This document shows, piece by piece, positions 30,595-59,250 of a stretch of 64,000 bases of DNA. Numbering within the stretch: position 1 is the first letter of the stretch; each line of letters starts with the position of its first letter. The notes beneath the pieces are model-generated. The model was not told the origin of the DNA and did not search any database. It saw only the letters and a list, made by a program, of their open reading frames with translations. The DNA is from an uncultured Methanosarcinales archaeon (GTDB taxonomy: Archaea; Nanobdellota; Nanobdellia; Woesearchaeales; UBA11576), in the NCBI GenBank assembly GCA_964406185.1, contig CAYOQS010000001.1, forward strand, positions 6,121 to 70,120. The letters run 5' to 3'. The translations under genes were made by a program, and so were the position numbers.

Positions 30595-32229
30595 ATGGCA
30601 TCTGCTGACAAGGTAAAAAGGCTGATAGCGAAGATAAGGTCCCAGTCCACAAGACTGCAGGTCCTGAACGAGCTGATAGAGATAGAGACCTCGACCAAGG
30701 ATGTCTACCAGATGCTCAAGGAGATGCTCCTTCTGACCGTCAAGGCGATAGGTGTAGAGCATGGTTTCATAATCCTATACAGGAAGGACTCGCAGAACCC
30801 TTTTGAGTACGGTGCGACCAACACTTCTGATCAGTTCGAGGACAAGACCCTTGTCAGGGACATCTGCAACAACATAATCAAGACGCACAAGCCGGTCATC
30901 ATAAATGATACGCGCATGCATAGGCGCCTCAGGCGGTGCAAGATCAAGAACATGCTTGCCCTTCCGCTCATGTCAGGCAAGATACCTGTTGGCTTGTTCC
31001 TGGTGATGAACAAGAACAAGCATCTTTTCAAGAAACGCGACCTCATACTTTTCAGGATGATATGCAAGTTCGTAGCTGGTGCTGTCGAGCACGCGAAGGA
31101 CACGCAGGACCTTGAGGAAAAGGACAAGGAGCTTGCCACTATCTATGCCATCGATAGGATAAGGGATACTATCAAGGATTTCAACACGATGATGGAAGCC
31201 GTGCTCCAGGAGCTGACGCAGGTAATCGACGCTAAGCTCGCTTTCTTCCTTTTGTACAACAAGAAGACCAACAAGACAGAGCTGAAGATCTCAGGCCAGC
31301 TCAAGTCGTCCAGCTTCGTGCATAACAATGCCAATTATATATATGAGATATCAAGATCTACGCTGAACAACGGCGAGCTCATCGAGTTCAATGATGTCAG
31401 CAAGGAGATAAAGTCCGCGATATGCACACCCATAGTCGTGAGTGATGATACGATGGGTGTCTTCGGCGTGATAAACGCTAACTCCCCGGGCGGGTTCACC
31501 AGGGTGGACAAGAAACTGCTCAACGCGATCGCGAAGCAGTCCGACTCGGCTGTGTTCGAGGATCTTGAGAAGAACGAGATCAAGCAGGCGTTCGGGCGTT
31601 ATGTGAGCCCTGATGTCATCGAGGAGATCCTTTCCGATCCTGAGAAGAACTATATGAAGACAGACAAACGCGAGATCACTGTGCTGTTCTCTGACATAAG
31701 GGGCTTCACGTCCATGTCTGAGAACCTGAAGCCTGAGCAGGTGGTAGAGATGCTGAACGAGCATTTCGAGGTTATGTCTGAGATCATCATGAGGAACCGC
31801 GGGACTCTCGACAAGTTCGTCGGGGATGAGATTATGGCTCTTTTCGGCGCCCCGGTATACAGCGAGTCCCATGCGCTGAAGGCGATCAAGACCGCGCTTG
31901 AGATGCAGAAGGCGCAGACAGAGCTTTCCAGGAAGTGGAAGAAGAAGTTCGGCAGGGATGTTGACATAGGCATCGGAATCAATACGGGCGAGATGATCGT
32001 CGGGAACATAGGCTGCAAGCAGATGATGGACTACACTGTCATCGGCGACAGCGTCAACACAGCGGCAAGGCTCTGCGGCGCTGCCAAGGCAGGGCAGATA
32101 CTGATAACTGAGAACACCAAGGCCGAGGTGAAGAAGCTCGTCAAGACGAGCGAGATTGAGCCGATCAAGGCGAAGGGCAAGTCCAAGCCGCTGTCAGTCT
32201 ACAGCGTGACAGGATTGGTCAAGCAGTAA
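30595..32229 (+). CDS. class III adenylate/guanylate cyclase with two N-terminal GAF-like domains
   Basis: 544 aa. The cyclase core has ITVLFSDIRGFTSMSE, KFVGDEIMALFGAP, GINTGEMIVGNIG and YTVIGDSVNTAARL. The Lys before FVGD suggests ATP specificity. The N-terminal roughly 330 aa have two GAF-like repeats. Confidence 0.85.
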   Translation: MASADKVKRLIAKIRSQSTRLQVLNELIEIETSTKDVYQMLKEMLLLTVKAIGVEHGFIILYRKDSQNPFEYGATNTSDQFEDKTLVRDICNNIIKTHKPVIINDTRMHRRLRRCKIKNMLALPLMSGKIPVGLFLVMNKNKHLFKKRDLILFRMICKFVAGAVEHAKDTQDLEEKDKELATIYAIDRIRDTIKDFNTMMEAVLQELTQVIDAKLAFFLLYNKKTNKTELKISGQLKSSSFVHNNANYIYEISRSTLNNGELIEFNDVSKEIKSAICTPIVVSDDTMGVFGVINANSPGGFTRVDKKLLNAIAKQSDSAVFEDLEKNEIKQAFGRYVSPDVIEEILSDPEKNYMKTDKREITVLFSDIRGFTSMSENLKPEQVVEMLNEHFEVMSEIIMRNRGTLDKFVGDEIMALFGAPVYSESHALKAIKTALEMQKAQTELSRKWKKKFGRDVDIGIGINTGEMIVGNIGCKQMMDYTVIGDSVNTAARLCGAAKAGQILITENTKAEVKKLVKTSEIEPIKAKGKSKPLSVYSVTGLVKQ

Positions 32230-36431: not shown

Positions 36432-37799
36432 TCAGTCTCCTTTTATGGCTGTTGGACTCGCGCCGCCGTGCCAGGTGAACCTGGGCCTGACCCTGATCAT
36501 CATTATCTTCTCGTTCAGGTCGTCGAAAACCACGGCTGTTCCTTTCACTGTGGGCAGGTTGTTCATCGCGCGCTCTATCCCGTGCTCCATGTAGCTCTGC
36601 GCTAGCAGTCCGAGCGCCTGCACGTCGAGCCTCGCGGTTATCCTGTGCGAGAGCACGATGTCTGACTGTGTCATGACATCTGTGTGTATCTTTCCTGGCT
36701 GCTGGGTCGCTACTACGAGGCATGTGCCGGGCTGCCTTCCTTCTCTCATGACTATCTTGAGTGGCTCTGTTGCCGCGTTGGCATCCTTCTCGTCTTTCGG
36801 GAGGAATTCGTGTGCTTCGTCTATTACAAGCCATACGAGGGGCATGTCCTGCTTCTGGGCATCTGCCTGGCTCTTCTCCTCGAAGTACTGTTCGAGGTAT
36901 TTTATCTCTGAAAGCTCTTCCTCTTTCCTGAATGCCATCCTTGTGACGAAGAGATGTCTTGATACTATGCCCACTACCAGTGCCTTGACATCCCATCCTC
37001 CAGGCATGGTGGCGTAGCAGCTGACGTCGAGCACGCTTATCTGCCCGCCTTTGGCAAGCTCTTCTATCGGGGTACCTTTCTCTGAGAACACCCCCCAGCC
37101 TTCTGCTGTCTGGAACATGTTCCTGACTGCAGCTCTTGTCAGCTTGTCTGTATCCTTGTCGTGTTCTATGTACCCTAGTATGTCTTTCATGAAGAACCTG
37201 TTATTATTTTCGCTGAGCTGCTCGACGATCTTCTGTATGTACAGTCCGTTGGCAGAGTACTTGTCCTGCTTGAAGGCGACACACCAGTCCTCACCTGTTA
37301 TCATGTGCGGCTCTAGAGAGAATGGCACGTCTGTCCTTATGCCTTTCTTCTTGTAGATATAGTAGTATTTTTCAGGCGTGAATATCTTGACATCGACCGG
37401 GTGCGGATCCAGGCCGTATGGGTCGAGGAGGTGCTTCTCTTTCTGGTTCGCGTGGCCCATAGTCCAGTATATTCCCATCGTGTCCAGGAGGATTATGCTG
37501 AGGTTCTGCTTGACGCTGGGCTCAAGCATTGAAAGCCCTTCTGCTATCACGCCCATGGTGTAGCTCTTTCCTCCGCCCCTCTTTCCGCAGATGAGCATGA
37601 CGTGCGCTCCTGCCACGTCCATGTAGATGTTGTTCTCCAGGAACATCCTGTCAAGTTTCTCTATGTATTGCTTGCCCAGAAGTATCGCGCCCTTGGTGCC
37701 CCATTTCTCGACGTCTTTTTCGCTCCTGCCTATGACTACGGGCAGCTTTTTCTGCTCTGCTGCCTGTTTTCTATCTTCACCTTCTTTTTCTTCGGGCAT
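36432..37799 (-). CDS. HerA/FtsK-superfamily (DUF87-like) P-loop ATPase
   Basis: 455 aa with Walker A ICGKRGGGKSYTMG and Walker B LVWLVIDEAHEFLP, and the typical ATQQPGKI late motif. Confidence 0.75.
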   Translation of the reverse strand: MPEEKEGEDRKQAAEQKKLPVVIGRSEKDVEKWGTKGAILLGKQYIEKLDRMFLENNIYMDVAGAHVMLICGKRGGGKSYTMGVIAEGLSMLEPSVKQNLSIILLDTMGIYWTMGHANQKEKHLLDPYGLDPHPVDVKIFTPEKYYYIYKKKGIRTDVPFSLEPHMITGEDWCVAFKQDKYSANGLYIQKIVEQLSENNNRFFMKDILGYIEHDKDTDKLTRAAVRNMFQTAEGWGVFSEKGTPIEELAKGGQISVLDVSCYATMPGGWDVKALVVGIVSRHLFVTRMAFRKEEELSEIKYLEQYFEEKSQADAQKQDMPLVWLVIDEAHEFLPKDEKDANAATEPLKIVMREGRQPGTCLVVATQQPGKIHTDVMTQSDIVLSHRITARLDVQALGLLAQSYMEHGIERAMNNLPTVKGTAVVFDDLNEKIMMIRVRPRFTWHGGASPTAIKGD

Positions 37800-46369: not shown

Positions 46370-46723
46370 ATGGGTTTGTTTTCGAAAAAAGAGGACACGC
46401 GTTACATAAAGGAGTTTGATGAGGCTCTTGCCAATATCAACTCGCTCGCTAAGGATTTCAGGGAGAAGCATTTCGAGTCGATTTCTCTGTTCCAGAAGAA
46501 TTTCGAGAAGAAGAAGTCTGGTTCTGATCTTGAGAAGGAGCGCGAGGTTTTCGAGGACCATCTTGAAGTCCTTCAGAAGCTGAAGTTCAACGCTGATAAT
46601 CTTATCGATGAGGCTGTGAAGCTGGTGAGGAATGAGACTGCCTTGACCGAGAAGGACCGTGCTGAGCTCAGGAAGCTGTTGGAGAGGAAGAGCCCGACGA
46701 ATATCCAGGTGAAGAAGAAGTAG
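46370..46723 (+). CDS. hypothetical small helical protein
   Basis: 117 aa, K/E-rich helical, starting MGLFSKK. The 3' end overlaps the convergent 46668..47288 ORF by 56 nt, so one of the two ends is uncertain. Confidence 0.45.
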   Translation: MGLFSKKEDTRYIKEFDEALANINSLAKDFREKHFESISLFQKNFEKKKSGSDLEKEREVFEDHLEVLQKLKFNADNLIDEAVKLVRNETALTEKDRAELRKLLERKSPTNIQVKKK

Positions 46724-47464: not shown

Positions 47465-48379
47465 ATGGGACTGCTCAACTGGATTTCTACTATGTTCCAG
47501 CCCAAGGAGGTCAGGGACGCTGTCAAGGCAGGCCAGAAGGCGATCAATGAAGCCCGCAAGAAGGAACGCGCAGAAGCTCTCAGCAAGACCCAGTTCCGGG
47601 AGGAGATGCGCAGGGGCGAGCGGGAGATACTTTCGCATTCAGGTGACGCGACCCATTATAAGAAAGAGGCGGACGCTGAGCTCAGGGCTTTGAGGAAGAT
47701 ACCGAAGGACGCGAGCAAGATTACAGCCAAGGATGAGAAATGGTTCACGAGCAAGGTCAAGTCTGAGGCGCAGAAGGAGTCTGAGCTTGCCAAGCAGCTC
47801 CAGAAAGGTTTCAAGGCGATGAAGACCGATGCTTTCGAAAGGCAGGCAGTCACGATATCTAAGTTCCTTGCGACTATGAGCAGGTCTTTGAAGGACGCTG
47901 AGAAGGTTTCGACAAGGCTGACCCGGCAGGTTGCGGACCAGCAGCAGGAGATCCTGCGTCTTGGGCAGATGCTTGAGGAAAGAGCGTCTCTCGTCAGCAG
48001 GATTGATGAGGTGAGAGAGCAGAGGCTGCAGAGCTTCAAGCCTGAGCTTGCGCGCGAGGAGATGAACCTGCTCCAGCAGCTCAACAGCAAGGATCAGGAT
48101 ATAGTCAGGTCCTATCAGAGGGTAACCGCTCTTGCGGCTTCGGGTTCTGCCATCCTCGAGAATGCTGAGATGATACTCCAGACCCTGGCTCCTGTCGAGT
48201 TCGACTCGAAAGAGCTTGTCAAGAGGGTCAAGGACGAGATAAGCTACGCCCGGTCCATAGTTAAGTTCGAGGGCAGCATAATGTCTGCTATGAAGGCTGG
48301 TGAGAAGGCTCAGAAGGAGGAGATGGAAGCGATCAGTCTGTTCACTGAGCGGCTCACAAAAGAGAAGAAGGCTGCCTGA
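47465..48379 (+). CDS. hypothetical long helical / coiled-coil protein
   Basis: 304 aa, E/K/Q/L-rich throughout. It starts MGLLNW and ends ...EKKAA, the same KKAA end as the 53204..54172 product. Confidence 0.55.
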   Translation: MGLLNWISTMFQPKEVRDAVKAGQKAINEARKKERAEALSKTQFREEMRRGEREILSHSGDATHYKKEADAELRALRKIPKDASKITAKDEKWFTSKVKSEAQKESELAKQLQKGFKAMKTDAFERQAVTISKFLATMSRSLKDAEKVSTRLTRQVADQQQEILRLGQMLEERASLVSRIDEVREQRLQSFKPELAREEMNLLQQLNSKDQDIVRSYQRVTALAASGSAILENAEMILQTLAPVEFDSKELVKRVKDEISYARSIVKFEGSIMSAMKAGEKAQKEEMEAISLFTERLTKEKKAA

Positions 48380-48873: not shown

Positions 48874-50085
48874 TTATTTCTCGAAGATTTTTTTCGCATC
48901 TGATATTATCCTGTCTTCGTAGTCGGATTGCTTCTCCCCTTCGTCTTTTTCCTTGTCAAGTGAGAGCATCAGGCTGTTTATGAGATCTTTTTCCTGTTCC
49001 CTGCTAAGGTCCATGCACTTGATCTGGCCGATGTGCTCTTCGACGACGAGCTTCTCTGCATCTTCTGTTGTGTCTGCTTTCACCTTGATCTCTTCGAAAT
49101 CTTTGGATCTTAGTTTGCCTGTGTTCTTGAGTATGGTGAGCGCGTCTTTCTCCTGTATGAGTTCTGATATCCTGCGCGTGTCTATCTCCGATGTCTTCCC
49201 TGCCTCCAGCGTGCCCGAAAGTCGGAGAAGGACTATCGCTCCTTTCAGGTCTTTCCTGTTGATCTCTTCGGTGAGTTCTTGGGTGACCTGCTGTGGTGTC
49301 TTGTGGTCGCAGTCCATGGGTATCGTAACGACCTGCGCGGGCTCGATCCTGCGGCATTCTGTTTTGCCGTCATCGTATATGTAGAATGATCCGCCTTTTA
49401 GCTTTTCCATCTCAGAGAAGCTGTTCGGGAATGTGGGTCCGGGATATACTATGTTCCTGTATCCTTCGATGCTGGCTTCCCTGACTATATGGACGTGTCC
49501 GCCTGCGTAGTAGTCCATGCCGCGTGGCAGCACGGAGACCGGCGCTGATTCCATCTTTTCAAGCTCTTCAGGCTTTAGCTCTGACAGTGCTGTGTGGAAC
49601 ATGAATATCCTGAAACCTTCCTCGCTCTCCAGGTTGTCCCTTATCAGTCCTTCGTAGTATTTTTTCTCGAGCATGCCTTTCTTTCCTATCATACCTGTTA
49701 TCTTGGCCCCTGTCTTCAGGTCTTTTGTGAAGTGAAGCTTTAGCTTCTCGCCCACCACTTCTCCTTTGCATACGTTGATGACCAGCTCTGCCTCTTCGAG
49801 GACTTCGAGCATCGTCTTTCCTGACGGTGAGAAATCGTGGCTGCCTGCTATCGTATAGACAGGTATGTCTTTCCTCTTGAGCTTCTTAAGCTCAGACACT
49901 GCGAGCTTGATGCTGTCTATTGATGGGAGGCTTGTGTTGAAAAGGTCTCCTGATATCAGCACGAAGTCTACCTTTTCTGCCAGGCTGATGTCGATCGCGG
50001 TGGCGAAGCTCTTTTCGCTGAGCTCTCTCAGCTTGGACTCTTTCCAGCTTCCGAGATGTATGTCTGCCATGTGTGAGAACTTCAC
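48874..50085 (-). CDS. Mre11/SbcD-like calcineurin-fold nuclease
   Basis: 403 aa with the motifs MKFSHMADIHLGSW, SGDLFN, AGSHD, MFHTAL and GGHVH. The C-terminal roughly 150 aa are unassigned. No Rad50 gene is adjacent. Confidence 0.7.
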   Translation of the reverse strand: MKFSHMADIHLGSWKESKLRELSEKSFATAIDISLAEKVDFVLISGDLFNTSLPSIDSIKLAVSELKKLKRKDIPVYTIAGSHDFSPSGKTMLEVLEEAELVINVCKGEVVGEKLKLHFTKDLKTGAKITGMIGKKGMLEKKYYEGLIRDNLESEEGFRIFMFHTALSELKPEELEKMESAPVSVLPRGMDYYAGGHVHIVREASIEGYRNIVYPGPTFPNSFSEMEKLKGGSFYIYDDGKTECRRIEPAQVVTIPMDCDHKTPQQVTQELTEEINRKDLKGAIVLLRLSGTLEAGKTSEIDTRRISELIQEKDALTILKNTGKLRSKDFEEIKVKADTTEDAEKLVVEEHIGQIKCMDLSREQEKDLINSLMLSLDKEKDEGEKQSDYEDRIISDAKKIFEK

Positions 50086-50177
50086 GATGTCTACCCCTTA
50101 TGGGCTGGAAAGAAGGCGTGGTTAAAATGTTTTTTGTTATGGTCTTTATGGTCTGGTTGATTCTTAAGCTGGCTTGT

Positions 50178-50633
50178 TCATTCTGCAGGCAGGTTCCTTG
50201 ATTCCTGTTGGACATATTGGTAGAAGAGTCTCATGAACTGGATGTTGTATGGGTCTTTGCCTATCCTTGATATCTGAGCAGTGGGTTCTTCATCCTTGCC
50301 CGTTATCCTTGGGTCTATCTCTGCGATCTTGTCTAGTGCTGATTTGAGGAGTCTGATCTGTTGTGTTCCGGGCAGCATAGCTTCAAGCCCTGCAACAGAG
50401 AGCCTCTTGAGGTTGAAATAGCCGTGTACAGGCTCTCCTCTGTCATCCTCTTCTGTGGTGAGCATCATGAGATAAGAACGGGTTTCAAAACCTTCTTCAG
50501 AGCTGAATCTGAGCCAATAATCTGCTTTATAGCCTCCATTGCCAGGTATATGGTCTAATTCCTCTTCTAAAGAGACTCTGACCGTTTTTACGGCTTCTGA
50601 ACGCAATGCGCGGATTAGTTCACTACCCCCCAT
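50178..50633 (-). CDS. hypothetical small protein (P3 of the cluster)
   Basis: 151 aa with no recognisable motif, lying between the GGDEF gene and the Mre11-like gene on the same strand. Confidence 0.55.
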   Translation of the reverse strand: MGGSELIRALRSEAVKTVRVSLEEELDHIPGNGGYKADYWLRFSSEEGFETRSYLMMLTTEEDDRGEPVHGYFNLKRLSVAGLEAMLPGTQQIRLLKSALDKIAEIDPRITGKDEEPTAQISRIGKDPYNIQFMRLFYQYVQQESRNLPAE

Positions 50634-50681
50634 CTTAAAAATTATTGTGCAAGAGAACTATTTAAACCTTTCATTTTTTTA

Positions 50682-52208
50682 CTACTCTGTGGTGGGTGTG
50701 AAGATTGAGCTTTTGACCTGGTTCCTGCCGCTTTCCTTTGCCTCGTAGAGCTTGTTGTCCGCCTGCTTGATCATCTTCTTCTTGATCTGTCCTGCGTCCA
50801 GACCCATCGCGTCTGCCATGTTGTAGTCTTCCAGAGCCACAACTCCCAGGCTTATCGTGACCTGTTGTATCTGTTCACCATCGTAGTTGGTCATGGGATG
50901 CTGTTCGATAGATATTCTCATCTTCTCTGCCGCTTTCTCGGCCCCCTCTATCTTTGTGTTGGGCAGCGCGACCATTATCTCTTCGCCGCCGACACGGTAT
51001 ATCTCATCATGGGATTGCCTTATGACTTTCTTGAGGACAGATGCTACTTCCTTGAGAACCTTGTCGCCTATATCGTGACCGTATGTGTCGTTGAACTGCT
51101 TGAAATGGTCTATGTCTATCATCACCAAAGACAGGGGCTTCTTGTCCTTTATCATCTGCTTGAGTTCCTGCTCGAAAGAATGCCTGTTCTTTACCCCCAT
51201 CAGTATGTCGTGCGTGGCTTTGAGCTTTACCAGCTTCATGTCTTTCTTTGCCTTCTTCCAGAGGTAGGGTGCAGAAGCCACCACATCTTCAGTAAAAGCG
51301 TCAGGATTGCTCTTGATCGCTGACACGAGCATCTGCCATTCGTCCGGCTCGGTCATAGTGTCGAATATACTGTCCACGTCTGCCATATCTATCTTCGTAC
51401 CCTCTGATCTCTTCTCTGACATCATTTCGCAGAGGCTGTCTATCGGCGTGACTTCCTGTCTCGCGAGCTCGTTGAACGGGTCGTAGAATGCTTTCTTCTC
51501 CTGGATGAGCAGCGAGTTCACCTGCTTGATGAGCTGCTCGAGATATTTCTCGAGCTGCTCCCGTCTGACCGGGTCGAATTTCTGTCCTTCTTTAAAGCTG
51601 AACTTCTCAAGTGTATCTTCCTCCTGCTTGATGAAGTATTGGAGCCTGACTATTATGGGATGCTGTTTCCTGATAAGCTCTATGAGCTTGTCATGCACCG
51701 CCATTATGACTGATTCTTTTTCAAGCTCTTCCTTTAGGTATTCCTCACGCGTCGCAAGTTTCTGCTTTGCGACTGAATAGAATGCGCTGTATTCGTGCTC
51801 TTCCAGCTCCAGCTCCTCCATCTCGATTTGTTCAAGCTGCTCAAGGCTGGCTTTGCCGATGGTGAGGAGCCTCAGCGATAGCTTGTCTTCCTGGATCTCT
51901 ATCTCCAGGGATTTCATCACACGGGTTATGTCTTTCTTTATCTTTTTCGCGAGCTTTGCGCATTTCTTGCCGTGGCTTTCCCACGAGGATGTTTGACCTT
52001 TGTTCCAGGCATCTCTCTGGAAACTGCTCTCACTTTTAAGCTGGATAAGAAGCTTTTCATGATCATATACTGTCCTTATCCTTTTCTCGAAGTCCTGGGC
52101 GACAAGCGTCAGGAACTTGACTATATCCTGTATCTGTTCGACCAGCTCTTTTCTTGAGGCAGTCTTCGGGTCGTGCAGTTTTGCCTTGAACAGGGGTCCT
52201 TTGTCCAT
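50682..52208 (-). CDS. diguanylate cyclase (GGDEF domain, GGEEI variant) with a roughly 330-aa helical N-terminal region
   Basis: The C-terminal 170 aa are VKNRHSFEQEL...LVMIDIDHFKQFNDTYGHDIGDKVLKEV...IYRVGGEEIMVAL...VTISLGVVAL...ADNKLYEAKESGRNQV, a near-textbook GGDEF pattern. No TM helix or known sensor domain precedes it, only coiled-coil-like sequence. Confidence 0.85.
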   Translation of the reverse strand: MDKGPLFKAKLHDPKTASRKELVEQIQDIVKFLTLVAQDFEKRIRTVYDHEKLLIQLKSESSFQRDAWNKGQTSSWESHGKKCAKLAKKIKKDITRVMKSLEIEIQEDKLSLRLLTIGKASLEQLEQIEMEELELEEHEYSAFYSVAKQKLATREEYLKEELEKESVIMAVHDKLIELIRKQHPIIVRLQYFIKQEEDTLEKFSFKEGQKFDPVRREQLEKYLEQLIKQVNSLLIQEKKAFYDPFNELARQEVTPIDSLCEMMSEKRSEGTKIDMADVDSIFDTMTEPDEWQMLVSAIKSNPDAFTEDVVASAPYLWKKAKKDMKLVKLKATHDILMGVKNRHSFEQELKQMIKDKKPLSLVMIDIDHFKQFNDTYGHDIGDKVLKEVASVLKKVIRQSHDEIYRVGGEEIMVALPNTKIEGAEKAAEKMRISIEQHPMTNYDGEQIQQVTISLGVVALEDYNMADAMGLDAGQIKKKMIKQADNKLYEAKESGRNQVKSSIFTPTTE

Positions 52209-52292
52209 GGGTGAAGAAGACTGTCAGCAGGTATTTAAAATTTTGTAAATATGGCGTGGAGTCTGCGTAGAAAATGTTGTGAAGCGGAATCG

Positions 52293-53078
52293 TCACGCGT
52301 ACTTCTGTATCTTCTCTGCCCACTGCCTGAATTCCTGTGCACCGGAGTTGTACGTGTGGTAATATGGTCTGAAGCTGACCAGCGAAAGTGATTCGGCAGG
52401 CATGTCGAAGAAATAATCGAGTCCATCTACGCTCGCGTCCATCACGAAGAGGTTGTTTTCTACTGCCTGTTGGCATCTCTCGACGACCGCGTTCGCGGCC
52501 CTTGCTATGTCTCCCATGTCTGCGGTGAGTCTTCTCTTGGAGAATCTCTTTTCCAAAAGCATGTCTGCTGCCATCACATAGTTGTCGAGCTCTCCTGAAA
52601 GGATTATCTCTGCCCTGCCTTTGTCTGTTATCGGTGATGCAGGGTCAAGCATGCCTGACATCAACTGGACGTACAATGATCTCGCAGTCTTGGGATCTTC
52701 TATCCTGTTTCCTTCGATATCGACAAGACTTTCGAGCATCGAGGAGCCTATAAGATGTTTGAGCGGTTTGTGGAAGTTTCTCGGCGATCTTGCTGTGGAA
52801 GTGCTGTACCTGACGTCACAAAGGTGTAGCCCCTTGTCATAGCCCAGGTGGGCGAGATACACCTCCCGCATCACTTTCGCAAGGTCCTTCTCCTGCTTTG
52901 TCTCTTCTGACAGGTCAAGTTTTAGCCTGTGCACTATGTCTGTTCCGTCGATCATAATGTCAAAGTCCAGTTCCAGACGTATGTCTGCCAGAAGTATGTT
53001 CCGTTTCAGTTCCTGTTCTGATCCTTGCCCCCTGTCGTGTCTCGGATCGAAAAAGTCTCTCCCCAGTTCAATGACCAA
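52293..53078 (-). CDS. hypothetical protein (P2 of the cluster)
   Basis: 261 aa with a TTG start preceded by GGTGAT 5 nt upstream. It shares a short motif with P1 (PKTARSLYVQLMSG...P...GRAE versus AEAARTLYSRLTGE...P.GNAE). Confidence 0.5.
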   Translation of the reverse strand: MVIELGRDFFDPRHDRGQGSEQELKRNILLADIRLELDFDIMIDGTDIVHRLKLDLSEETKQEKDLAKVMREVYLAHLGYDKGLHLCDVRYSTSTARSPRNFHKPLKHLIGSSMLESLVDIEGNRIEDPKTARSLYVQLMSGMLDPASPITDKGRAEIILSGELDNYVMAADMLLEKRFSKRRLTADMGDIARAANAVVERCQQAVENNLFVMDASVDGLDYFFDMPAESLSLVSFRPYYHTYNSGAQEFRQWAEKIQKYA

Positions 53079-53203
53079 AAATAATCACCAAACAGTGGTA
53101 TAAATCCAACATTTATATAATTTTCCCATAGTAAATGGTGGCTCCAGAGTCTTTAAAAGAAAAAATAAGAGCTATAAAGTCTTAAAAAGAAGAAATAAAG
53201 GCT

Positions 53204-54172
53204 TTAAGCCGCTTTTTTGACTTCTGAAAAGCCTTTCTGGATAGATGGAGAATTTTCAGCCTTTTCCTGCATCCTATCAAGGAATTGCCATATCGCTTTT
53301 TCCCTGACAAATATCTGCCTCACGTATTCATGGACATCTTCCTTTTTACGCAGTATTGCGGGCACAGTCACTTCCTTCATCTTGTTCGCTGTTATCTCCA
53401 TCCCTTTAAGCTTGTTCATGTCAGATGGTGTGATGTATATCTTTCCTGCCTTGATGTGCTTGTCGATATCTTTGGCTTTGACATCCTCTATCTTGACCGC
53501 CTTCGGATTGATGCGTTTCCTTCCGAAGATCGTCCATTTTGTCCTTGTAGCGGCTGCTACGCAGTCCAGTTCCCATGTCTGTGTGAAGAGCTGGTTGAGC
53601 CTGTTGTTGTATTCTGCGAAGAGCTTGTCAAGTGTGGATGTCTTATCCTTAAGTTGGGCGTACATGTCCCGGAGGGTCTCGACCGCATTCTCCAGCCGTT
53701 TCTTGCCTTCTGCGTCCAGCAGTATGTATGAGGGCTTGTTTATCTCGAAGAGCGTTCTCTTGTATAGCCTCTTCCTGTTCGTTATCTGGACGTCCATCGC
53801 CTGGAATCCTGCCCTGTTGTATGCTATGTGCGTGTTGAGGATGTTCAGGAAATGCTCGAATGATTCCTCGAGAAGGTCTGCGACAGCAGCCATCGAGAAA
53901 AGCCTCTTCTCGACGAGCTTGTCGAGCTTCTCCTCTGCGGATGCCTCTTTCCTCTTTTCAGCGTGCCAGTCACGCCGCACGTTCTCCATGGTCTTTATCA
54001 GTTCTTCCCTTACCTTGAATGTTTTCCAGACTTCCTTGATGAACAGGACTTTGTCTTTGGGCTTTATCTTGTTGCCTGCTTTCTCCAGAACTTCTGACTG
54101 TTCGCCTATCGTCTTCATCTCGTCGTTGAGATGCGTGAATGCCTTGTTGATCTGTTTAGCGCTGACCGTCAT
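53204..54172 (-). CDS. hypothetical long helical protein (CC2 of the cluster)
   Basis: 322 aa with an ATG start and K/E/L-rich helical composition, ending ...EVKKAA. The 365-aa ORF on the opposite strand is S/L/F-rich, typical of antisense. Confidence 0.55.
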   Translation of the reverse strand: MTVSAKQINKAFTHLNDEMKTIGEQSEVLEKAGNKIKPKDKVLFIKEVWKTFKVREELIKTMENVRRDWHAEKRKEASAEEKLDKLVEKRLFSMAAVADLLEESFEHFLNILNTHIAYNRAGFQAMDVQITNRKRLYKRTLFEINKPSYILLDAEGKKRLENAVETLRDMYAQLKDKTSTLDKLFAEYNNRLNQLFTQTWELDCVAAATRTKWTIFGRKRINPKAVKIEDVKAKDIDKHIKAGKIYITPSDMNKLKGMEITANKMKEVTVPAILRKKEDVHEYVRQIFVREKAIWQFLDRMQEKAENSPSIQKGFSEVKKAA

Positions 54173-54280
54173 GTGCTCACCTTTTTTTGTTATGGTGCTA
54201 TTGGATACTGCTATGTCGAGAATATGGGTGGTGCTTTATTTAAAGTTTTGTTTTTCGTATGAAGAAAATGAGAAATTGTT

Positions 54281-54775
54281 TCACTGCTCCGATGGAAACT
54301 GCTGCACGAGATAAAGGGGACCCTCTGTCTTACGCATAGGGTCTGAATGGACTATTGCCAGTATCGCCTGCTCTGTGTCAAGACCTTCAAGGCAGCCCAT
54401 CTCATCGAAAAGACCTGATGAATCATGTGTTATCATGACTCTCGCCCCCCTTTTAGCGAGGTAATCAAAGAAATGGATGAGATTAGATACTGCTTCTGCA
54501 TTTCCTTCGGGTGCGTATGTCTCATGCGGTTCTCCCGTCAATCTTGAATAAAGTGTCCTTGCGGCTTCTGCCCTTACAGGCTCCTGTCTTCCGGGTATGT
54601 ATGCCTCAACCATGTAGACACGCCATTGCACGTAGGAGTTATGGATCCTTTTCCCTTCAGGGTCTGTTGTGCTGTCCCATGTTTCCTGTCTGATCTCAAG
54701 CTCCAGTTCGCTGCCCTGCAGGGAAATGTCTGAGAATCTTGATGTTATGTGTGATATGTCCCCCATTATGACCAC
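54281..54775 (-). CDS. hypothetical small protein (P1 of the cluster)
   Basis: 164 aa. The start is uncertain: GTG 54775 or ATG 54766. No recognisable domain. Confidence 0.5.
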   Translation of the reverse strand: MVIMGDISHITSRFSDISLQGSELELEIRQETWDSTTDPEGKRIHNSYVQWRVYMVEAYIPGRQEPVRAEAARTLYSRLTGEPHETYAPEGNAEAVSNLIHFFDYLAKRGARVMITHDSSGLFDEMGCLEGLDTEQAILAIVHSDPMRKTEGPLYLVQQFPSEQ

Positions 54776-54846
54776 ATAACCACCAAGAAGTGATTACAGA
54801 TATATAAAGATTTTGGTGATTGAAAGTCTGGATCTGCGCGGCAGTA

Positions 54847-55650
54847 TCAGAGCCTCTTGACAGATTTCGGCTCTCTCTCCAGCATCTTGCCGATGACCAC
54901 TTCCATGAGCTTCGCATCTCTCTTGGCGACTTTCTCAAGCTTGGCCTCCTGCTCTGCCTTGTCCACCAGCTCTTCTATCTTTCCCTGGACATATTTGATG
55001 TGTTCTAGTATTGGCTTGAAGTTTATGTCTGCCGCTTCATGCCCTTTCAGCTTATCCTCAACCTTCTTCTGCTCCTCATCGAGCATCCGCTCTATCTCTA
55101 CAGAGTCCTGTTCGTAGGCTGTGGATATCGCCTCGAAAAGCGGCTTGATCTTGTGTATAGCCCCCTGCATGTTGGTGGCTGTGTGCATGAGCTGCGTGAC
55201 TCCGGGCTTCACAGACACCAGGCCTTTTTCTTTCATGTTAGTATACAGCTCATCGACCAGGCCGAGTATCCTCCTCTCGTCATTGTAGAAAGCGCTCAAC
55301 TGCCCCCCCATCTCCGTAAGCAGGTGTTTGCCCTTGTCAAGATCCTCCAGCACATCTCCCCTCAGCTTCTCTATCTCAAAGGTCATCTTGCTGAGCCTGT
55401 CCAGCTCTTCCTCATGGCTCTTGTCAGGGTGCGCCCGTATCTCTTCAGCGATCTGCCAGCTTTCCTTGAGGAGATCGTGTATCTTCGCAAGCTTTTCCAT
55501 CATGGTCTTGCCGAAGAGCTTGTGCTTCTTAAGGAACTTGAGAAATATCTTCACATCGAGTTCCTTCGCCTCCTCAACGGTCTTTTTCGCGAGTGGAAAC
55601 GCTTCTTTCAGTGTCTTTTCAAAACCAGGATATTCAGAGAGATCGCCCAT
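54847..55650 (-). CDS. hypothetical helical / coiled-coil protein (CC1 of the cluster)
   Basis: 267 aa, with its ATG 26 nt downstream of the HerA-like stop. E/K/L-rich. Confidence 0.55.
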   Translation of the reverse strand: MGDLSEYPGFEKTLKEAFPLAKKTVEEAKELDVKIFLKFLKKHKLFGKTMMEKLAKIHDLLKESWQIAEEIRAHPDKSHEEELDRLSKMTFEIEKLRGDVLEDLDKGKHLLTEMGGQLSAFYNDERRILGLVDELYTNMKEKGLVSVKPGVTQLMHTATNMQGAIHKIKPLFEAISTAYEQDSVEIERMLDEEQKKVEDKLKGHEAADINFKPILEHIKYVQGKIEELVDKAEQEAKLEKVAKRDAKLMEVVIGKMLEREPKSVKRL

Positions 55651-55676
55651 CTTTTTCGCCTCTTTCTTTGGGTAAG

Positions 55677-57272
55677 CTACTGGAGCCTCACCCCTTCAAA
55701 TGTTGTTGTAGCCCGTCCTTCTTTATTATGCTTTCGCATCCCGACAAAATCGTCAGCGGACTCTCGCGCGTATCTCTCGAACAGGGGGATCTTGATGGGT
55801 GTCGCGAACTTGACGAAGTTGCTCGTGACTATCGCCTCTCCCTTGTCAAGGGATGCTATGCTCCTGTCATCTGTGGACAGGTCCTGTGATGCCGACTCGA
55901 TTATCGCCTGCCTTTCCGGTTTCATTTCCATACCCAGCACTATCTTGGTGTTCATGTTGGCCAATACCTCGCGGGGTATGAGTGACGGGAGCTGTGTTAT
56001 GGCGCAGAGGCCTACCTTGAACTTCCTGCCTTCGCGCGCTATGGTGCTGAATATGTTCGGGCCTGACTCGAGCACCTCTTTGCCAAGCACGCGCGGAGCC
56101 TCTTCCAGCACGACGGAGACGACCGGCTTTGCCTCCAGTGTCCCGCTTCGTTTGTATCTCTTGTAACGCCTGAAGACCTCTGTTATCATCATGCTTCCTA
56201 TCATTATCTCGACAGCTCCGCCGAATCCTGAAGTGTCCACCACGACTGTCTTGCCTCTTTCGACCTCTCCGGCTATGTCCTTGATGGTGCTCTCCCCTGC
56301 TGCGTAGTCGAACACTCCCCTGCAGCTGACCTGTCCTGAATCTACTGTGATGTCGAGGAGCTGCATCAGCCTCCGCCTGAGAACGCTGACTGTGGCTTCG
56401 TGGAAATCGACATTGAGCGGCTTCTCGAGCACGACTGCCTCCACCCATCTGCTGCCGTGTTCGCGGTAGTATGCGTTCATCGCCTGCTTCTGCGGATCAG
56501 AGAAAGCCACAGCTCCCCTGAAATGATCAGGCCTTATCTGGTTGATGTTTATCTTGAGGGAGTACGCTCCTGGCGGCGGATCACGGGGGGTGTAGTATGA
56601 CAGCCTTCCGCTTTCGGGATGGTCTTTCAGCCCTGTGCTGTTCCTTCCGTAGTACTCGTCATGGGGGTCGAGCACTATGGTACCGCAGTAGTCCCTGTCC
56701 ATGAGGCTCCACAGCATGACTTTCACTAGGTTGCTCTTGCCTCGTCCTGTGGTGGCAGCTATGAGCACGTGGTGAGGGAAGACCTTCCTGCCGGGCAGGC
56801 TTATGGGCACGTCAAGCATCTTTGATCCTGATCTGAGTTTGCCGAGGAAGAGCGGGTTTGGAGGTGCCACCATGAAATTGAGGTCTTGCTCCTGCACGCC
56901 TCTCAGCTCGGAGAAGAATCGGGGCAGCCTCTTGCAGAGCTGCATGTCTTTTCCCTTTATTATCGCGATGGGTTTTGAGAAAGCTATGGTGTAGTTGCGC
57001 ACGTTCTCATCGAAGAAGGATACATCGGTTCCGTCCTCAAGCTTCATCCCGGATATGAGCTCGAGGTTCTGCTGTGATATCTGGCTTCCGTACGTCAGGT
57101 CATAGACCTGGAGGAGTATCTTATGCTCGGTTTCCTTGTCTTCGGATATGAGGAGCTCTCCTATCTCCATTGGCTGGTCGGATTTCTGCCTTATGCATAC
57201 TTTTCCCAGCTCTCCTCCTACTACCTGCCCTTTAGTATATCCTTCCATCTCTTCTTCTGCCTCTTCTTCCAT
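55677..57272 (-). CDS. herA: HerA-like hexameric ATPase/helicase (HAS-barrel + DUF87 P-loop)
   Basis: 531 aa. The N-terminal barrel-like region is [15 protein letters not shown]...IGELLISED. Walker A is [14 protein letters not shown] and Walker B is [14 protein letters not shown], with a late motif [14 protein letters not shown]-like ctttaaataat lies about 25 nt upstream of the ATG on the minus strand. Confidence 0.8.
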
Positions 57273-57389
57273 CTCATTGGCAGGTAACCTTGAGTATTAT
57301 TTAAAGTTGTATTGTCAAGCACGGGTGACGATAGCTGTAAGGGATGTATTGGAAGAAAAAGAGGTGAAAGGATAGAAAGAAAAGATAGG

Positions 57390-57423: not shown

Positions 57424-57852
57424 TTATTTCTTCTTGGCCTTTTTCTTGGCTTTCTTCTTGGTCGTCTTGGCCTTCTTCTTCACTTTCTTCTTGGCCTTCT
57501 TGACCTTCTTCTTGGCCTTCTTCGTGGCTTTCTTGGCCTTCTTCTTCACTTTCTTCTTGGCCTTCTTGACCTTCTTCTTCGCCTTCTTCGTGGCTTTCTT
57601 GGCCTTCTTCTTTCCCTTCTTTTTCTTGCCGCCTCTCACCATCTTTGCACAGGATATGTCTCCCTTCTTGTCGATGAAGTAGAGGAAGCCCGGCTTCTTC
57701 TTGACTCCGACCTTGGCGACTTTCTTCGGTTTGCCTGCCTTGCCTCCTCGGCCGCGGGCCATCTTCGCGCAGGATACGTCTCCATTCTTGTCGACGAAAT
57801 AGAGATATCCTGGCTCTTTCTTAACACCAACCTTTGCAACTTTTTGTGCCAT
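57424..57852 (-). CDS. lysine-rich protein with a duplicated roughly 35-aa N-terminal module and a histone-H1-like KKAKK repeat tail (putative nucleic-acid binding)
   Basis: 142 aa. The module VAKVGVKK(E/K)PG(Y/F)LYF(V/I)DK(N/K)GD(V/I)SCAKM(A/V)RG occurs twice. The tail is (KKAKKATKKAKKKVKKAKKKVK)x2 plus more. Confidence 0.65.
   Translation of the reverse strand: MAQKVAKVGVKKEPGYLYFVDKNGDVSCAKMARGRGGKAGKPKKVAKVGVKKKPGFLYFIDKKGDISCAKMVRGGKKKKGKKKAKKATKKAKKKVKKAKKKVKKKAKKATKKAKKKVKKAKKKVKKKAKTTKKKAKKKAKKK
57469..57612. repeat. 66-nt direct tandem repeat, 2 copies (1 mismatch) plus a 12-nt partial third copy, inside the lysine-rich gene
   Basis: Units at 57469-57534 and 57535-57600 differ only G/C at one position. 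The period is in frame (22 aa). Confidence 0.9.
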
Positions 57853-57974: not shown

Positions 57975-58682
57975 TTATCCGCCGGCTTGCGGAGACACCT
58001 CGAGCTCTACCAGCTCGTCTATCTCCTGGCGGGATATCGCGCACCCGTGCAGCTTTATGCCCCAGAGCAGGGACTCGACAAGGGTCTTCCTCGCGTCGTC
58101 TGTCTTGAGCAGGTACTTGTCGAGGAAGCCTTTCTCGTAGGCCACCATGACCAGCTCGACGGACCGGAGTATCTTGACGCCCTTCAGCCATCCCTGTATC
58201 TTCTTCAGGTTCTGCTTGTTCATGGTTATCTTGTATCTTGTCTTCTTGGCCAGCCTGCCCGATATGTCTTCAGGGTTCTCGACCAGCATCTTGGTGATCC
58301 TCTCATCGACGACCAGAGCTGACGAGTTGAGGACTATTGCTGCTGCGAGGGCCTCCATCTCTGCGTATTGGACTATCTTTATCCAGTTCCCGCTTGCCTT
58401 GAAGAGGTGGTTCGCCAGTTCAAGGAGCTCTTCTGCCAATGCCTTGATCTTGGGTGTGTCGACGACGGTCAGGACTGCCTTGTTTATCCTGTGGCTTACC
58501 TGGAGCGCCTCGAACTTGAACTTCTTTGACTTGAGGGGGTTGTCTACCAGCTCCGACTTGACCGCGCGGGGTATGTAGAAGTCTCCTTCGAAAGATTCCT
58601 TGAGGTAGTCGAGCACCCAGAGCAGGTTGTTTGTAGTCAGGCTTATCACCGGTCCCGCATCGAATACTATTGATCTCATCAT
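57975..58682 (-). CDS. PIN-like (DUF3368-like) putative nuclease
   Basis: From ATG 58682: MMRSIVFDAGPVISLTTNNLL..., the typical N-terminal strand plus Asp of PIN-like proteins. The start lies 1 nt after the TAA of the upstream gene; the track start at 58754 overlaps that gene. Confidence 0.45.
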   Translation of the reverse strand: MMRSIVFDAGPVISLTTNNLLWVLDYLKESFEGDFYIPRAVKSELVDNPLKSKKFKFEALQVSHRINKAVLTVVDTPKIKALAEELLELANHLFKASGNWIKIVQYAEMEALAAAIVLNSSALVVDERITKMLVENPEDISGRLAKKTRYKITMNKQNLKKIQGWLKGVKILRSVELVMVAYEKGFLDKYLLKTDDARKTLVESLLWGIKLHGCAISRQEIDELVELEVSPQAGG

Positions 58683-58683
58683 A

Positions 58684-59250
58684 TTATCCCTGTCCGAAGA
58701 GCGATCTTGCGAGGTTGAGCCTCCTCTCGACATGGCTGACCTTGCCGTCCTCATCGTGTATCCTGGTCTTGCCTATGTAGCTCATGAGCTCCCATCTGCC
58801 TATGCCGAGAAGGTCTGCAGCCCTTGCCGCGCTTATGCCGTGCTCGTACAGCCTGCTGCCCTTCTTTATCTGGGCCTTATCCAGGACGCGCTCTACATAT
58901 AACCGGTATTTCTTGTCTAGTGTAGCTGTGAAGTCGGATATCCTCTTCATCTTCTCCTTGTATTCTTCCAGCTTGTCATGCTCGAGTGATTCCTGTGCGC
59001 TGCCGAGCATGTTCCTTACCTGCTCTGAGTATTCTGAGTCGAAGCCCCATCTCTCGAGCAGTTTGGATATGGCGTATATCAGGACGGCGACCGTCAGGGA
59101 GTCAGGATCCTGGTATATGCTTGCATTGTCTATGGTGTGGTCGCTGAGATGCTTCAGCTTTTTCGAATCTTTCCTGTTGATGTACCGCTGGCCCTTCTTG
59201 AGAACTTGGATGATGCTCTTTTTTGCGGGTTTGGGGATGTTGATTTCCAT
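58684..59250 (-). CDS. helical protein with a C-terminal UPF0175-like HTH (antitoxin-like)
   Basis: 188 aa. The C-terminal LYEHGISAARAADLLGIGRWELMSYIGKTRI resembles UPF0175 HTH antitoxins. It is tightly coupled to the PIN-like gene. Confidence 0.45.
   Translation of the reverse strand: MEINIPKPAKKSIIQVLKKGQRYINRKDSKKLKHLSDHTIDNASIYQDPDSLTVAVLIYAISKLLERWGFDSEYSEQVRNMLGSAQESLEHDKLEEYKEKMKRISDFTATLDKKYRLYVERVLDKAQIKKGSRLYEHGISAARAADLLGIGRWELMSYIGKTRIHDEDGKVSHVERRLNLARSLFGQG

Follow-up and report, generated by a model that had tools for sequence, protein, structure and literature searches.

Gene content of the herA-mre11 locus

The window is a 64,000 nucleotide (nt) stretch of contig CAYOQS010000001.1 (GCA_964406185.1, positions 6,121 to 70,120) from an uncultured archaeon of the Woesearchaeales. 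The subject here is a run of eight genes on its minus strand, which begins with herA, continues through three pairs of genes for one helical and one small protein each (CC1 and P1, CC2 and P2, CC3-GGDEF and P3), and ends with mre11. All eight open reading frames (ORFs) listed in a preliminary description of this DNA were reproduced on that strand by an ORF listing with the same coordinates and lengths, and an independent gene caller gave a near-identical gene set on two Logan contigs whose sequence matches the window at 100% identity. The gaps between the eight genes are 26-125 nt. The identities first proposed for HerA, GGDEF and Mre11 were borne out by matches to DUF87, to Pfam GGDEF, and to Metallophos and Mre11_Pyroc. 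Relatives were drawn from 80 genome loci and 80 metagenome loci, in which ORFs were called and labelled by jackhmmer with the window proteins as queries.

The herA gene (55677..57272, minus strand) is one of two conserved flanks around the island of inner genes. It encodes a HerA-type hexameric ATPase/translocase of 531 amino acids (aa), which scores 78 bits with PF01935 (DUF87) against a cut-off of 23.2 and has both Walker A (GRGKS, residues 176-180) and Walker B (VLEEA, residues 388-392) motifs. Its closest match in the PDB is Sulfolobus HerA (4D2I, 5.8e-25). The protein is far under the NCBIfam equivalog cut-offs, with 94 bits versus 970 for NF040819 and 91 versus 800 for NF040937. There are more than 3000 homologues, the best of which are 60-79% identical and are named as Woesearchaeota or Nanoarchaeota, and a scan of species-representative genomes found carriers in at least 573 genomes of these groups. 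The window also contains a second, shorter DUF87/HerA-like ATPase (36432-37799, minus strand, 455 aa, 1.1e-09) in a context unrelated to herA-mre11.

The other conserved flank is mre11 (48874..50085, minus strand), which encodes an Mre11-type nuclease of 403 aa. The protein scores 50.5 bits with PF00149 (Metallophos) against a cut-off of 21.5 (4.6e-13) and also matches Mre11_Pyroc (1.1e-29). Its closest PDB matches are P. furiosus Mre11 (4HD0 and 1II7, about 1e-24), and like HerA it is far under the NCBIfam equivalog cut-off. The nuclease motifs are DIHLG (residues 8-12), GDLF (46-49), GSHD (81-84) and GGHVH (195-199). The third motif is GSHD in 85 of 87 Woesearchaeal homologues from the loci, with Ser replacing the Asn of the canonical Mre11/SbcD motif GNHD.

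The six genes in between are on the same strand. CC1 (54847..55650, 267 aa) is a helical and highly charged ORFan, and its partner by co-occurrence is P1 (54281..54775, 164 aa), a small acidic ORFan. CC2 (53204..54172, 322 aa) is a helical, basic ORFan with the C-terminus KKAA, and its partner P2 (52293..53078) is an acidic ORFan of 261 aa with a TTG start as called. CC3-GGDEF (50682..52208, 508 aa) has a helical N-terminal domain followed by a diguanylate cyclase domain, which Pfam places at about residues 331-497 (window 50718-51218). P3 (50178..50633, 151 aa) is a third small acidic ORFan and has a conserved DPRIxG motif.

CC1, P1, CC2, P2, P3 and the N-terminus of CC3 have no significant match in Pfam, NCBIfam, PADLOC or PHROGs, which agrees with the earlier view that the inner genes have no recognisable domain. 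PADLOC-DB 2.0 returned nothing for CC1, P1, P2, CC3-GGDEF and P3, and its matches to CC2 all have E above 0.04. Family profiles of CC1, CC2, P1, P2 and P3 gave nothing below E 0.03 against PDB sequences, and no membrane segment was detected in any of the cluster proteins. The CC proteins contain 4-8% proline plus glycine and 34-38% charged residues, a composition typical of helical proteins, and the first 330 aa of CC3 are all-helical in an AlphaFold model; the helical assignment of these proteins is thus supported. Family and motif scans found neither a Walker A motif nor a Rad50 or NurA family match in the six inner proteins, so the helical proteins are not a split Rad50, as the preliminary description had also concluded.

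The TATA-box-like octamer TTTAAATA occurs 12 times in the window versus 0.79 expected (15-fold enriched). On the minus strand it is found 25 nt upstream of the starts of herA (57298..57305) and P3 (50659-50666). It ends 22-25 nt upstream of CC3-GGDEF (52232-52239) and 64 nt upstream of CC2 (54237-54244). TATA-like motifs of the same strand also precede P1 (TTTATATA, 54801-54808, 25 nt upstream of the start) and P2 (TTATATAA, 53113-53120, 34 nt upstream). The octamer TTTAAATA ends 22-25 nt upstream of a 188-aa gene that lies before the cluster, as it does for herA, CC3-GGDEF and P3, and by motif position this spacing is the geometry of leaderless archaeal transcripts. CC1 has no TATA octamer; its start is 26 nt past herA, behind a GAGG Shine-Dalgarno-like motif. 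The motifs of herA, P1 and CC2 recur in the relatives, where CC1 overlaps or abuts herA. The locus is predicted not to be a single operon with one promoter, since exact or near-exact TATA octamers stand before six of the genes.

The alternation of helical and small proteins had been taken to suggest tandem duplication of a two-gene module. BLASTP all-against-all and jackhmmer cross-labelling found no CC/CC or P/P paralogy, and hhalign between the family alignments, which are shallow (4-5 sequences), gave probabilities below 1% for all CC/CC and P/P comparisons. Duplication therefore finds no support in these searches, and the lack of similarity for P3 and among the CC proteins, first seen by eye, holds in them as well. 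What stands of the proposed pairing is that a helical and a small protein together form the unit of gain and loss. A motif that had appeared to be shared by P1 and P2 lies, in P2, within a window-specific stretch that P2 homologues do not have, and in the P1 family the motif residues T74-L75-Y76 are conserved. The KKAA end that CC2 has in common with the helical protein at 47465..48379 is partly upheld. AA-type ends recur among homologues, with [KR]xAA in three of four for CC2 and AA in three of three for the 304-aa family of 47465-48379, so both families tend to end in AA, but they are otherwise unrelated.

The junction and the cyclase family in relatives

The mre11 gene is downstream of herA in 49 of the 56 genome loci that are long enough to tell and in 32 from metagenomes (81 in total), and the gap between the two genes ranges from -29 nt to 8.7 kb. 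The genes overlap by exactly 4 nt in about 12 loci, an overlap of the kind that, judged from gene arrangement, marks long-standing translational coupling of a gene pair. A scan of the approximately 1.2 Mb of flanks of the first 86 loci (L001-L086) for Rad50-like ORFs, defined as 450 aa or longer and with GxNGxGK[ST] at the N-terminal end, found none, the large ORFs of the window contain no Rad50-like motif, and no NurA family member is among the neighbours in the gene tables of the window and the fetched loci. The absence of rad50 and nurA alongside herA and mre11, first reported for this cluster, thus extends to the fetched loci. On this comparison herA and mre11 are an ancestral, tightly coupled and putatively DNA-end-processing pair without an adjacent rad50 or nurA. 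That Woesearchaeota keep such a pair bears on DNA-break repair in reduced-genome archaea.

The pair resembles the herA-mre11-rad50-nurA operon of Sulfolobus and Pyrococcus in that HerA is closest to 4D2I and Mre11 to P. furiosus Mre11, and in the ancestral adjacency and translational coupling of herA and mre11 within the phylum. It differs in that rad50 and nurA are missing from the window and from every fetched locus, in the sub-equivalog scores of HerA and Mre11, in the GSHD rather than GNHD motif of Mre11, and in that the herA-mre11 junction is a cargo hotspot. In two genomes, L087 (GCA_019323395.1) and L170 (GCA_042576705.1), herA itself is missing at the locus and CC3-GGDEF, P3 and mre11 are kept. 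The order in both is a PIN-like gene, one or more small genes, the helical-GGDEF gene, P3 and mre11; they are otherwise syntenic, and tblastn found no HerA remnant in either.

The content of the junction changes from lineage to lineage. L017 has an operon of LysX/LysY/LysZ/LysJ/LysK type (lysine biosynthesis) with an AsnC regulator at this position. L058 carries a type II restriction-modification system consisting of a methylase, a BsaWI-like endonuclease and a second methylase, and other methylases are found in L059 and L077. The cargo of L062 is a giant surface protein of 1697 aa (Laminin_G/MopE), that of L070 is a NAGPA-phosphatase fusion, and other lineages contribute many singleton ORFans. 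The ORFan families of these lineages show no mutual relation by hhalign. Since the content of the junction varies by lineage and is mutually unrelated, gene order says little about shared function at this site.

The junction is like bacterial integration hotspots and defence islands in its conserved flanks, in its variable, lineage-specific cargo that includes restriction-modification genes, and in a divergence of the cargo that is discordant with the flanks. It is unlike them in that both flanking genes belong to one repair operon, integrase, tRNA and repeat boundaries are absent, and the cargo consists mostly of cytoplasmic ORFans. No integrase, no tRNA boundary and no flanking repeats beyond the shared promoter motifs were found at the island. 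A mobile-element origin of the island was rejected on the absence of an integrase, flanking repeats and PHROG matches, and on the host-like GC content at third codon positions (GC3) of the CC genes. The GC3 of P1 and P3 is somewhat lower.

Only a small clade, in which HerA is at least 70% identical to that of the window, has the six inner genes. Their combinations vary among the relatives, always as helical plus small pairs and always in the same order. All three pairs are present between herA and mre11 in L010, CC2-P2 and CC3-GGDEF-P3 in L088, CC3-GGDEF-P3 alone in L005, and CC2-P2 alone in L012. L003 has CC1-P1 and CC2-P2 together with a gene for a 905-aa protein and a reverse-strand 158-aa gene, and L008 has CC1-P1 with the same 905/158 pair. 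In L011 only the 905/158 pair is found (here 924 and 166 aa), and in L013 it follows herA (918 and 159 aa) on a contig that ends before mre11. The nearest relative, L090, has an unrelated helical 159-aa plus 170-aa pair and a 991/155 version of the 905/158 pair.

CC1 homologues occur in only 4 other genomes, always directly after herA (gap of -4 to 30 nt) and then followed by P1, which accompanies CC1 in five of five genomes. CC2 homologues, 17-34% identical, are present in L003, L010, L012 and L088, each time with P2 as the next gene. A search of 5.8 billion proteins with P2 found only P2 itself, and weak P2 homologues of 186-212 aa were recognised in L003, L010, L012 and L088. Because these homologues are shorter, the start codon of P2 (TTG, 261 aa) is uncertain. 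The single-sequence AlphaFold model of P1 has a pLDDT of 47, and Foldseek returned nothing with so poor a model.

The cassettes are far less conserved than the flanks. Identity to the window copy is 70-76% for HerA and 64-68% for Mre11, versus 36-58% for CC1, 34-46% for P1, 21-32% for CC2, 26-38% for P2, 24-48% for the CC3 N-terminus and 26-43% for P3. L088 and L010 share 82% identity in HerA, 78% in Mre11 and 79% in the Nudix protein, but only 36% in CC2, 28% in P2, 26% in CC3-GGDEF and 27% in P3. L092 and L103 are 86% identical in HerA, 84% in Mre11 and 30% in the GGDEF protein. This contrast between flanks and cargo is not clock-like, and it points to in-situ replacement of cargo alleles or to strong diversification.

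The 905-991-aa family occupies the slot of the cyclase in sister genomes (L003 15020-17737, L008 13036-15753, L011 4156-6930, L090 3773-6748) and is paired there with the reverse-strand gene of about 158 aa. It has no Pfam match. By hhalign, the proteins contain a degenerate GGDEF-like domain with the motif QGDEIW (75% probability, E 2.6e-5) and a second, weaker GGDEF-like domain. The 905-aa protein was also considered as a divergent Rad50, and this was rejected as it has no Walker A motif and carries the degenerate GGDEF-like domain instead.

The cyclase domain of CC3-GGDEF scores 135.7 bits with PF00990 against 23.8 (1.6e-39) and 145.6 bits with TIGR00254 against 37.4 (1.1e-42). The active-site residues D365-I-D367, N373, D382 and GGEE are invariant in 8 family sequences. 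The signature is GGEEI at residues 407-411, with Ile replacing the final Phe, and GGEEF in L006; the inhibitory RxxD I-site is absent from the window protein. In the AlphaFold model (pLDDT 70) the N-terminal 330 aa form long helices, and Foldseek with this model returned diguanylate cyclases only (TM score up to 0.81, including SiaD-SiaC 7e6g), all matching the GGDEF domain and none the N-terminal domain. CC3-GGDEF is probably an active synthase of cyclic di-GMP (c-di-GMP) and would be controlled through its helical domain.

Full-length homologues of CC3-GGDEF number only seven among 5.8 billion clustered proteins. An exhaustive search of 1.84 billion proteins with the N-terminal 326 aa gave eight representative clusters at E<=1e-10, all of 511-525 aa, plus one weak repeat-type match to an unrelated 580-aa protein. 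Five of the eight clusters were tested (P0127-P0129, P0242, P0244) and all five have a GGDEF domain. Further members of the helical-GGDEF family are present in L006 and in a second HerA clade (L092, L096, L103, L105), where the gene and the herA stop codon overlap by 1 or 4 nt (4 in L103). The family has 12 distinct contexts in three separate HerA clades, all at this locus. For 11 of these the sequence continues downstream, and mre11 follows in all 11, usually behind a small P3-like gene. P3 itself is the next gene in L005, L006, L010, L087, L088, L170 and L173. In the more distant Woesearchaeote L006, positions 1-2011, about 8-10 kb upstream of herA, encode a PocR-GAF-GGDEF protein and a 259-aa GGDEF protein. 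GGDEF genes in the phylum are therefore not confined to the herA-mre11 gap.

CC3-GGDEF is similar to SiaD-SiaC of P. aeruginosa, DgcB of C. crescentus and WspR in having a canonical, intact GGDEF domain after a long helical region, and like SiaD it has a small protein encoded beside it. By this analogy, P3 is perhaps its partner. The differences are that the 330-aa helical domain of CC3 has no relatives outside its family, no similarity of P3 to SiaC or to any solved structure could be detected, and the window protein has GGEEI, no RxxD I-site and an archaeal host. According to a 2022 review, archaea lack GGDEF proteins almost completely, and the archaeal contigs on which they are found still need confirmation (PMC10086821). 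The cyclase locus is flanked by archaeal housekeeping genes for archaeosine TGT, AspRS and an SSB-like OB-fold protein, and in relatives by MCM and RFC. With such flanks, these loci confirm GGDEF proteins for the Woesearchaeota. They place diguanylate cyclases with intact active sites in a clearly archaeal chromosomal context in several DPANN genomes. Full-text literature searches turned up no account of either this arrangement or GGDEF systems in DPANN archaea.

Interpretation of the locus

The reading that we favour, and consider probable, is that a conserved herA-mre11 pair has been split by a hypervariable island, the cargo of which is here three cassettes of a helical and a small protein. 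It builds on the observed gene content, distribution, evolutionary rates and intact cyclase active site. CC1/P1, CC2/P2 and CC3-GGDEF/P3 would be gained, lost and replaced as pairs in the hotspot, and they evolve several times faster than the flanks. CC1 would ride on the herA transcript, and every other cassette gene would have its own predicted TATA-box promoter. The third cassette may be a signalling unit that produces c-di-GMP. Its family-specific helical N-terminal domain could dimerise or sense and thereby control the GGDEF domain, with P3 as a putative protein partner in the manner of SiaC, the small activator of the coiled-coil cyclase SiaD. CC1/P1 and CC2/P2 would be cargo and not subunits of a HerA-Mre11 machine.

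Several points weigh against this reading. The helical-GGDEF gene is found only at this locus and always with mre11 downstream, which could be due to functional coupling and not to passive residence. In every case, CC1 shares a transcript with herA or is translationally coupled to it. Neither a receptor nor a phosphodiesterase for c-di-GMP was identified. The proposed role of P3 is pure analogy, and the P3 profile matches neither SiaC nor another solved structure. The separate promoters, finally, are predictions from motifs.

The cyclase may be linked to the repair genes, since the helical-GGDEF family is found exclusively beside mre11 and herA. In this alternative, which we consider unlikely, only CC3-GGDEF and P3 would have a functional tie to the repair genes. 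They would serve as a checkpoint of the DisA type that uses c-di-GMP to report or control end processing by Mre11 (and HerA), and CC1/P1 and CC2/P2 would be unrelated cargo. The 12 of 12 family contexts at this locus and the 11 of 11 with mre11 downstream are consistent with it, as are the spread over three HerA clades, the 4-nt overlap with herA in L103, and the divergent 905-991-aa relative with degenerate GGDEF-like domains in the same slot elsewhere in the clade. However, cargo would also stay at one site if it were inherited vertically or recombined through the conserved flanks, and most herA-mre11 pairs do not have the family. The extreme divergence between close relatives suits a conflict or accessory locus better than a housekeeping checkpoint. 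A cyclase family known only beside mre11 is a testable candidate link from cyclic-dinucleotide signalling to DNA-end processing.

A broader version of such a link is similarly unlikely. The junction would then be a diversifying conflict or signalling locus in which helical-GGDEF cyclases and their small partners couple c-di-GMP to the HerA/Mre11 end machinery, either as a DisA-like DNA-damage checkpoint or as a new cyclic-dinucleotide defence system, and the other helical plus small pairs would be further modules of the same undescribed kind. If true, this would give archaea their first c-di-GMP-linked system with an assigned role.

Also unlikely is that the inner genes are conflict modules, for anti-virus defence or symbiont-host interaction, in a hotspot resembling a defence island, with helical domains that sense an invader and a cyclase that signals to an effector. 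What speaks for it is the kind of cargo and the divergence of the alleles. In other lineages the same hotspot has methylases and a complete restriction-modification system of type II, alleles are deeply divergent between close relatives, and pairs are swapped as units, as in the nearest relative L090 with its different helical plus small pair. As in HerA-Sir2, HerA-DUF4297 and other HerA-based anti-phage systems with solved structures, a HerA-family ATPase is found here beside variable partners, and PADLOC HerA models match the window protein weakly. The differences are that HerA structures of the defence type match it at 1e-9 or weaker, far below repair HerA, and that the window HerA belongs to the core genes of the phylum, being highly conserved and near-universal, with no known effector alongside. 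The idea of a defence-type module, raised in the preliminary description, gained nothing from PADLOC, which has no defence-system match for the inner genes. They have no PHROGs matches, no recognisable effector domain and no transmembrane segment, the island has neither integrase nor flanking repeats, and the hotspot also holds plainly metabolic genes.

The least supported reading, and a very unlikely one, is that the eight genes are one repair, processing or defence system in which the helical and small proteins replace Rad50 and NurA as adaptors and the cyclase is a signalling arm. In its favour, the eight genes share one direction with short gaps between them, the cassettes keep a fixed order and are always found between herA and mre11, some genomes have translational coupling of CC1 or the GGDEF gene to herA, and the L001-L086 flanks have no Rad50-like ORF. 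Against it, most Woesearchaeota herA-mre11 pairs lack these genes and often overlap by 4 nt, each cassette is dispensable, the same slot holds unrelated metabolic, restriction-modification and surface genes in other lineages, herA can be lost while cassettes stay, the inner genes have no ATPase or nuclease motifs or PADLOC matches, and the predicted TATA boxes are separate. Of the eight-gene module first proposed, only the association of the cyclase with mre11 survives, as the neighbourhood as a whole is largely not conserved in relatives, an outcome that the preliminary description had itself set against its proposal. To read the cluster as one machine would be misleading, since its co-directional arrangement probably reflects a cargo hotspot within a conserved repair gene pair.

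Upstream neighbours and other genes of the window

Two further genes lie upstream of herA on the same strand. The first (58684-59250, minus strand) encodes the 188-aa protein, which has a helix-turn-helix-like C-terminus that matches PDB 8vd6 (4e-5). The second (57975-58664, minus strand) encodes a PIN-like protein of about 230 aa, with FDAGPIISL near its N-terminus and a later IDERT. Both genes are syntenic with herA. The 188-aa and PIN-like genes are found in this position in 43 and 46 of 70 loci, respectively, and the PIN-like gene sometimes overlaps herA. DUF3368 matches to this pair are weak or faint only, and Pfam and PDB profile searches do not confirm the PIN assignment. The two presumably resemble a pair of the COG2886/COG2405 type.

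Between the PIN-like gene and herA, the window has a gene (57424-57852, minus strand) for a 142-aa protein with two 40-aa units (about 80% DNA identity) and a long Lys/Ala-rich tail. Homologues occupy the same position in 16 loci. The protein may be a small DNA-binding protein.

On the other side of the cluster, two helical proteins are encoded on the plus strand at 47465-48379 and 46370-46723. Both start with MGL[LF], which we take to be like N-termini of the PspA/Vipp1/ESCRT-III type, and neither has a Pfam match. The shorter of the two (46370-46723, 117 aa) is well conserved at 65-72%, unlike the cargo of the cluster. Farther away, a gene at 30595-32229 (plus strand) encodes a protein of 544 aa that combines two GAF domains with an adenylate/guanylate cyclase domain of class III (Guanylate_cyc, 3.2e-33). 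Together with the GGDEF protein, the 64 kb therefore encode at least two kinds of nucleotide-second-messenger cyclase.

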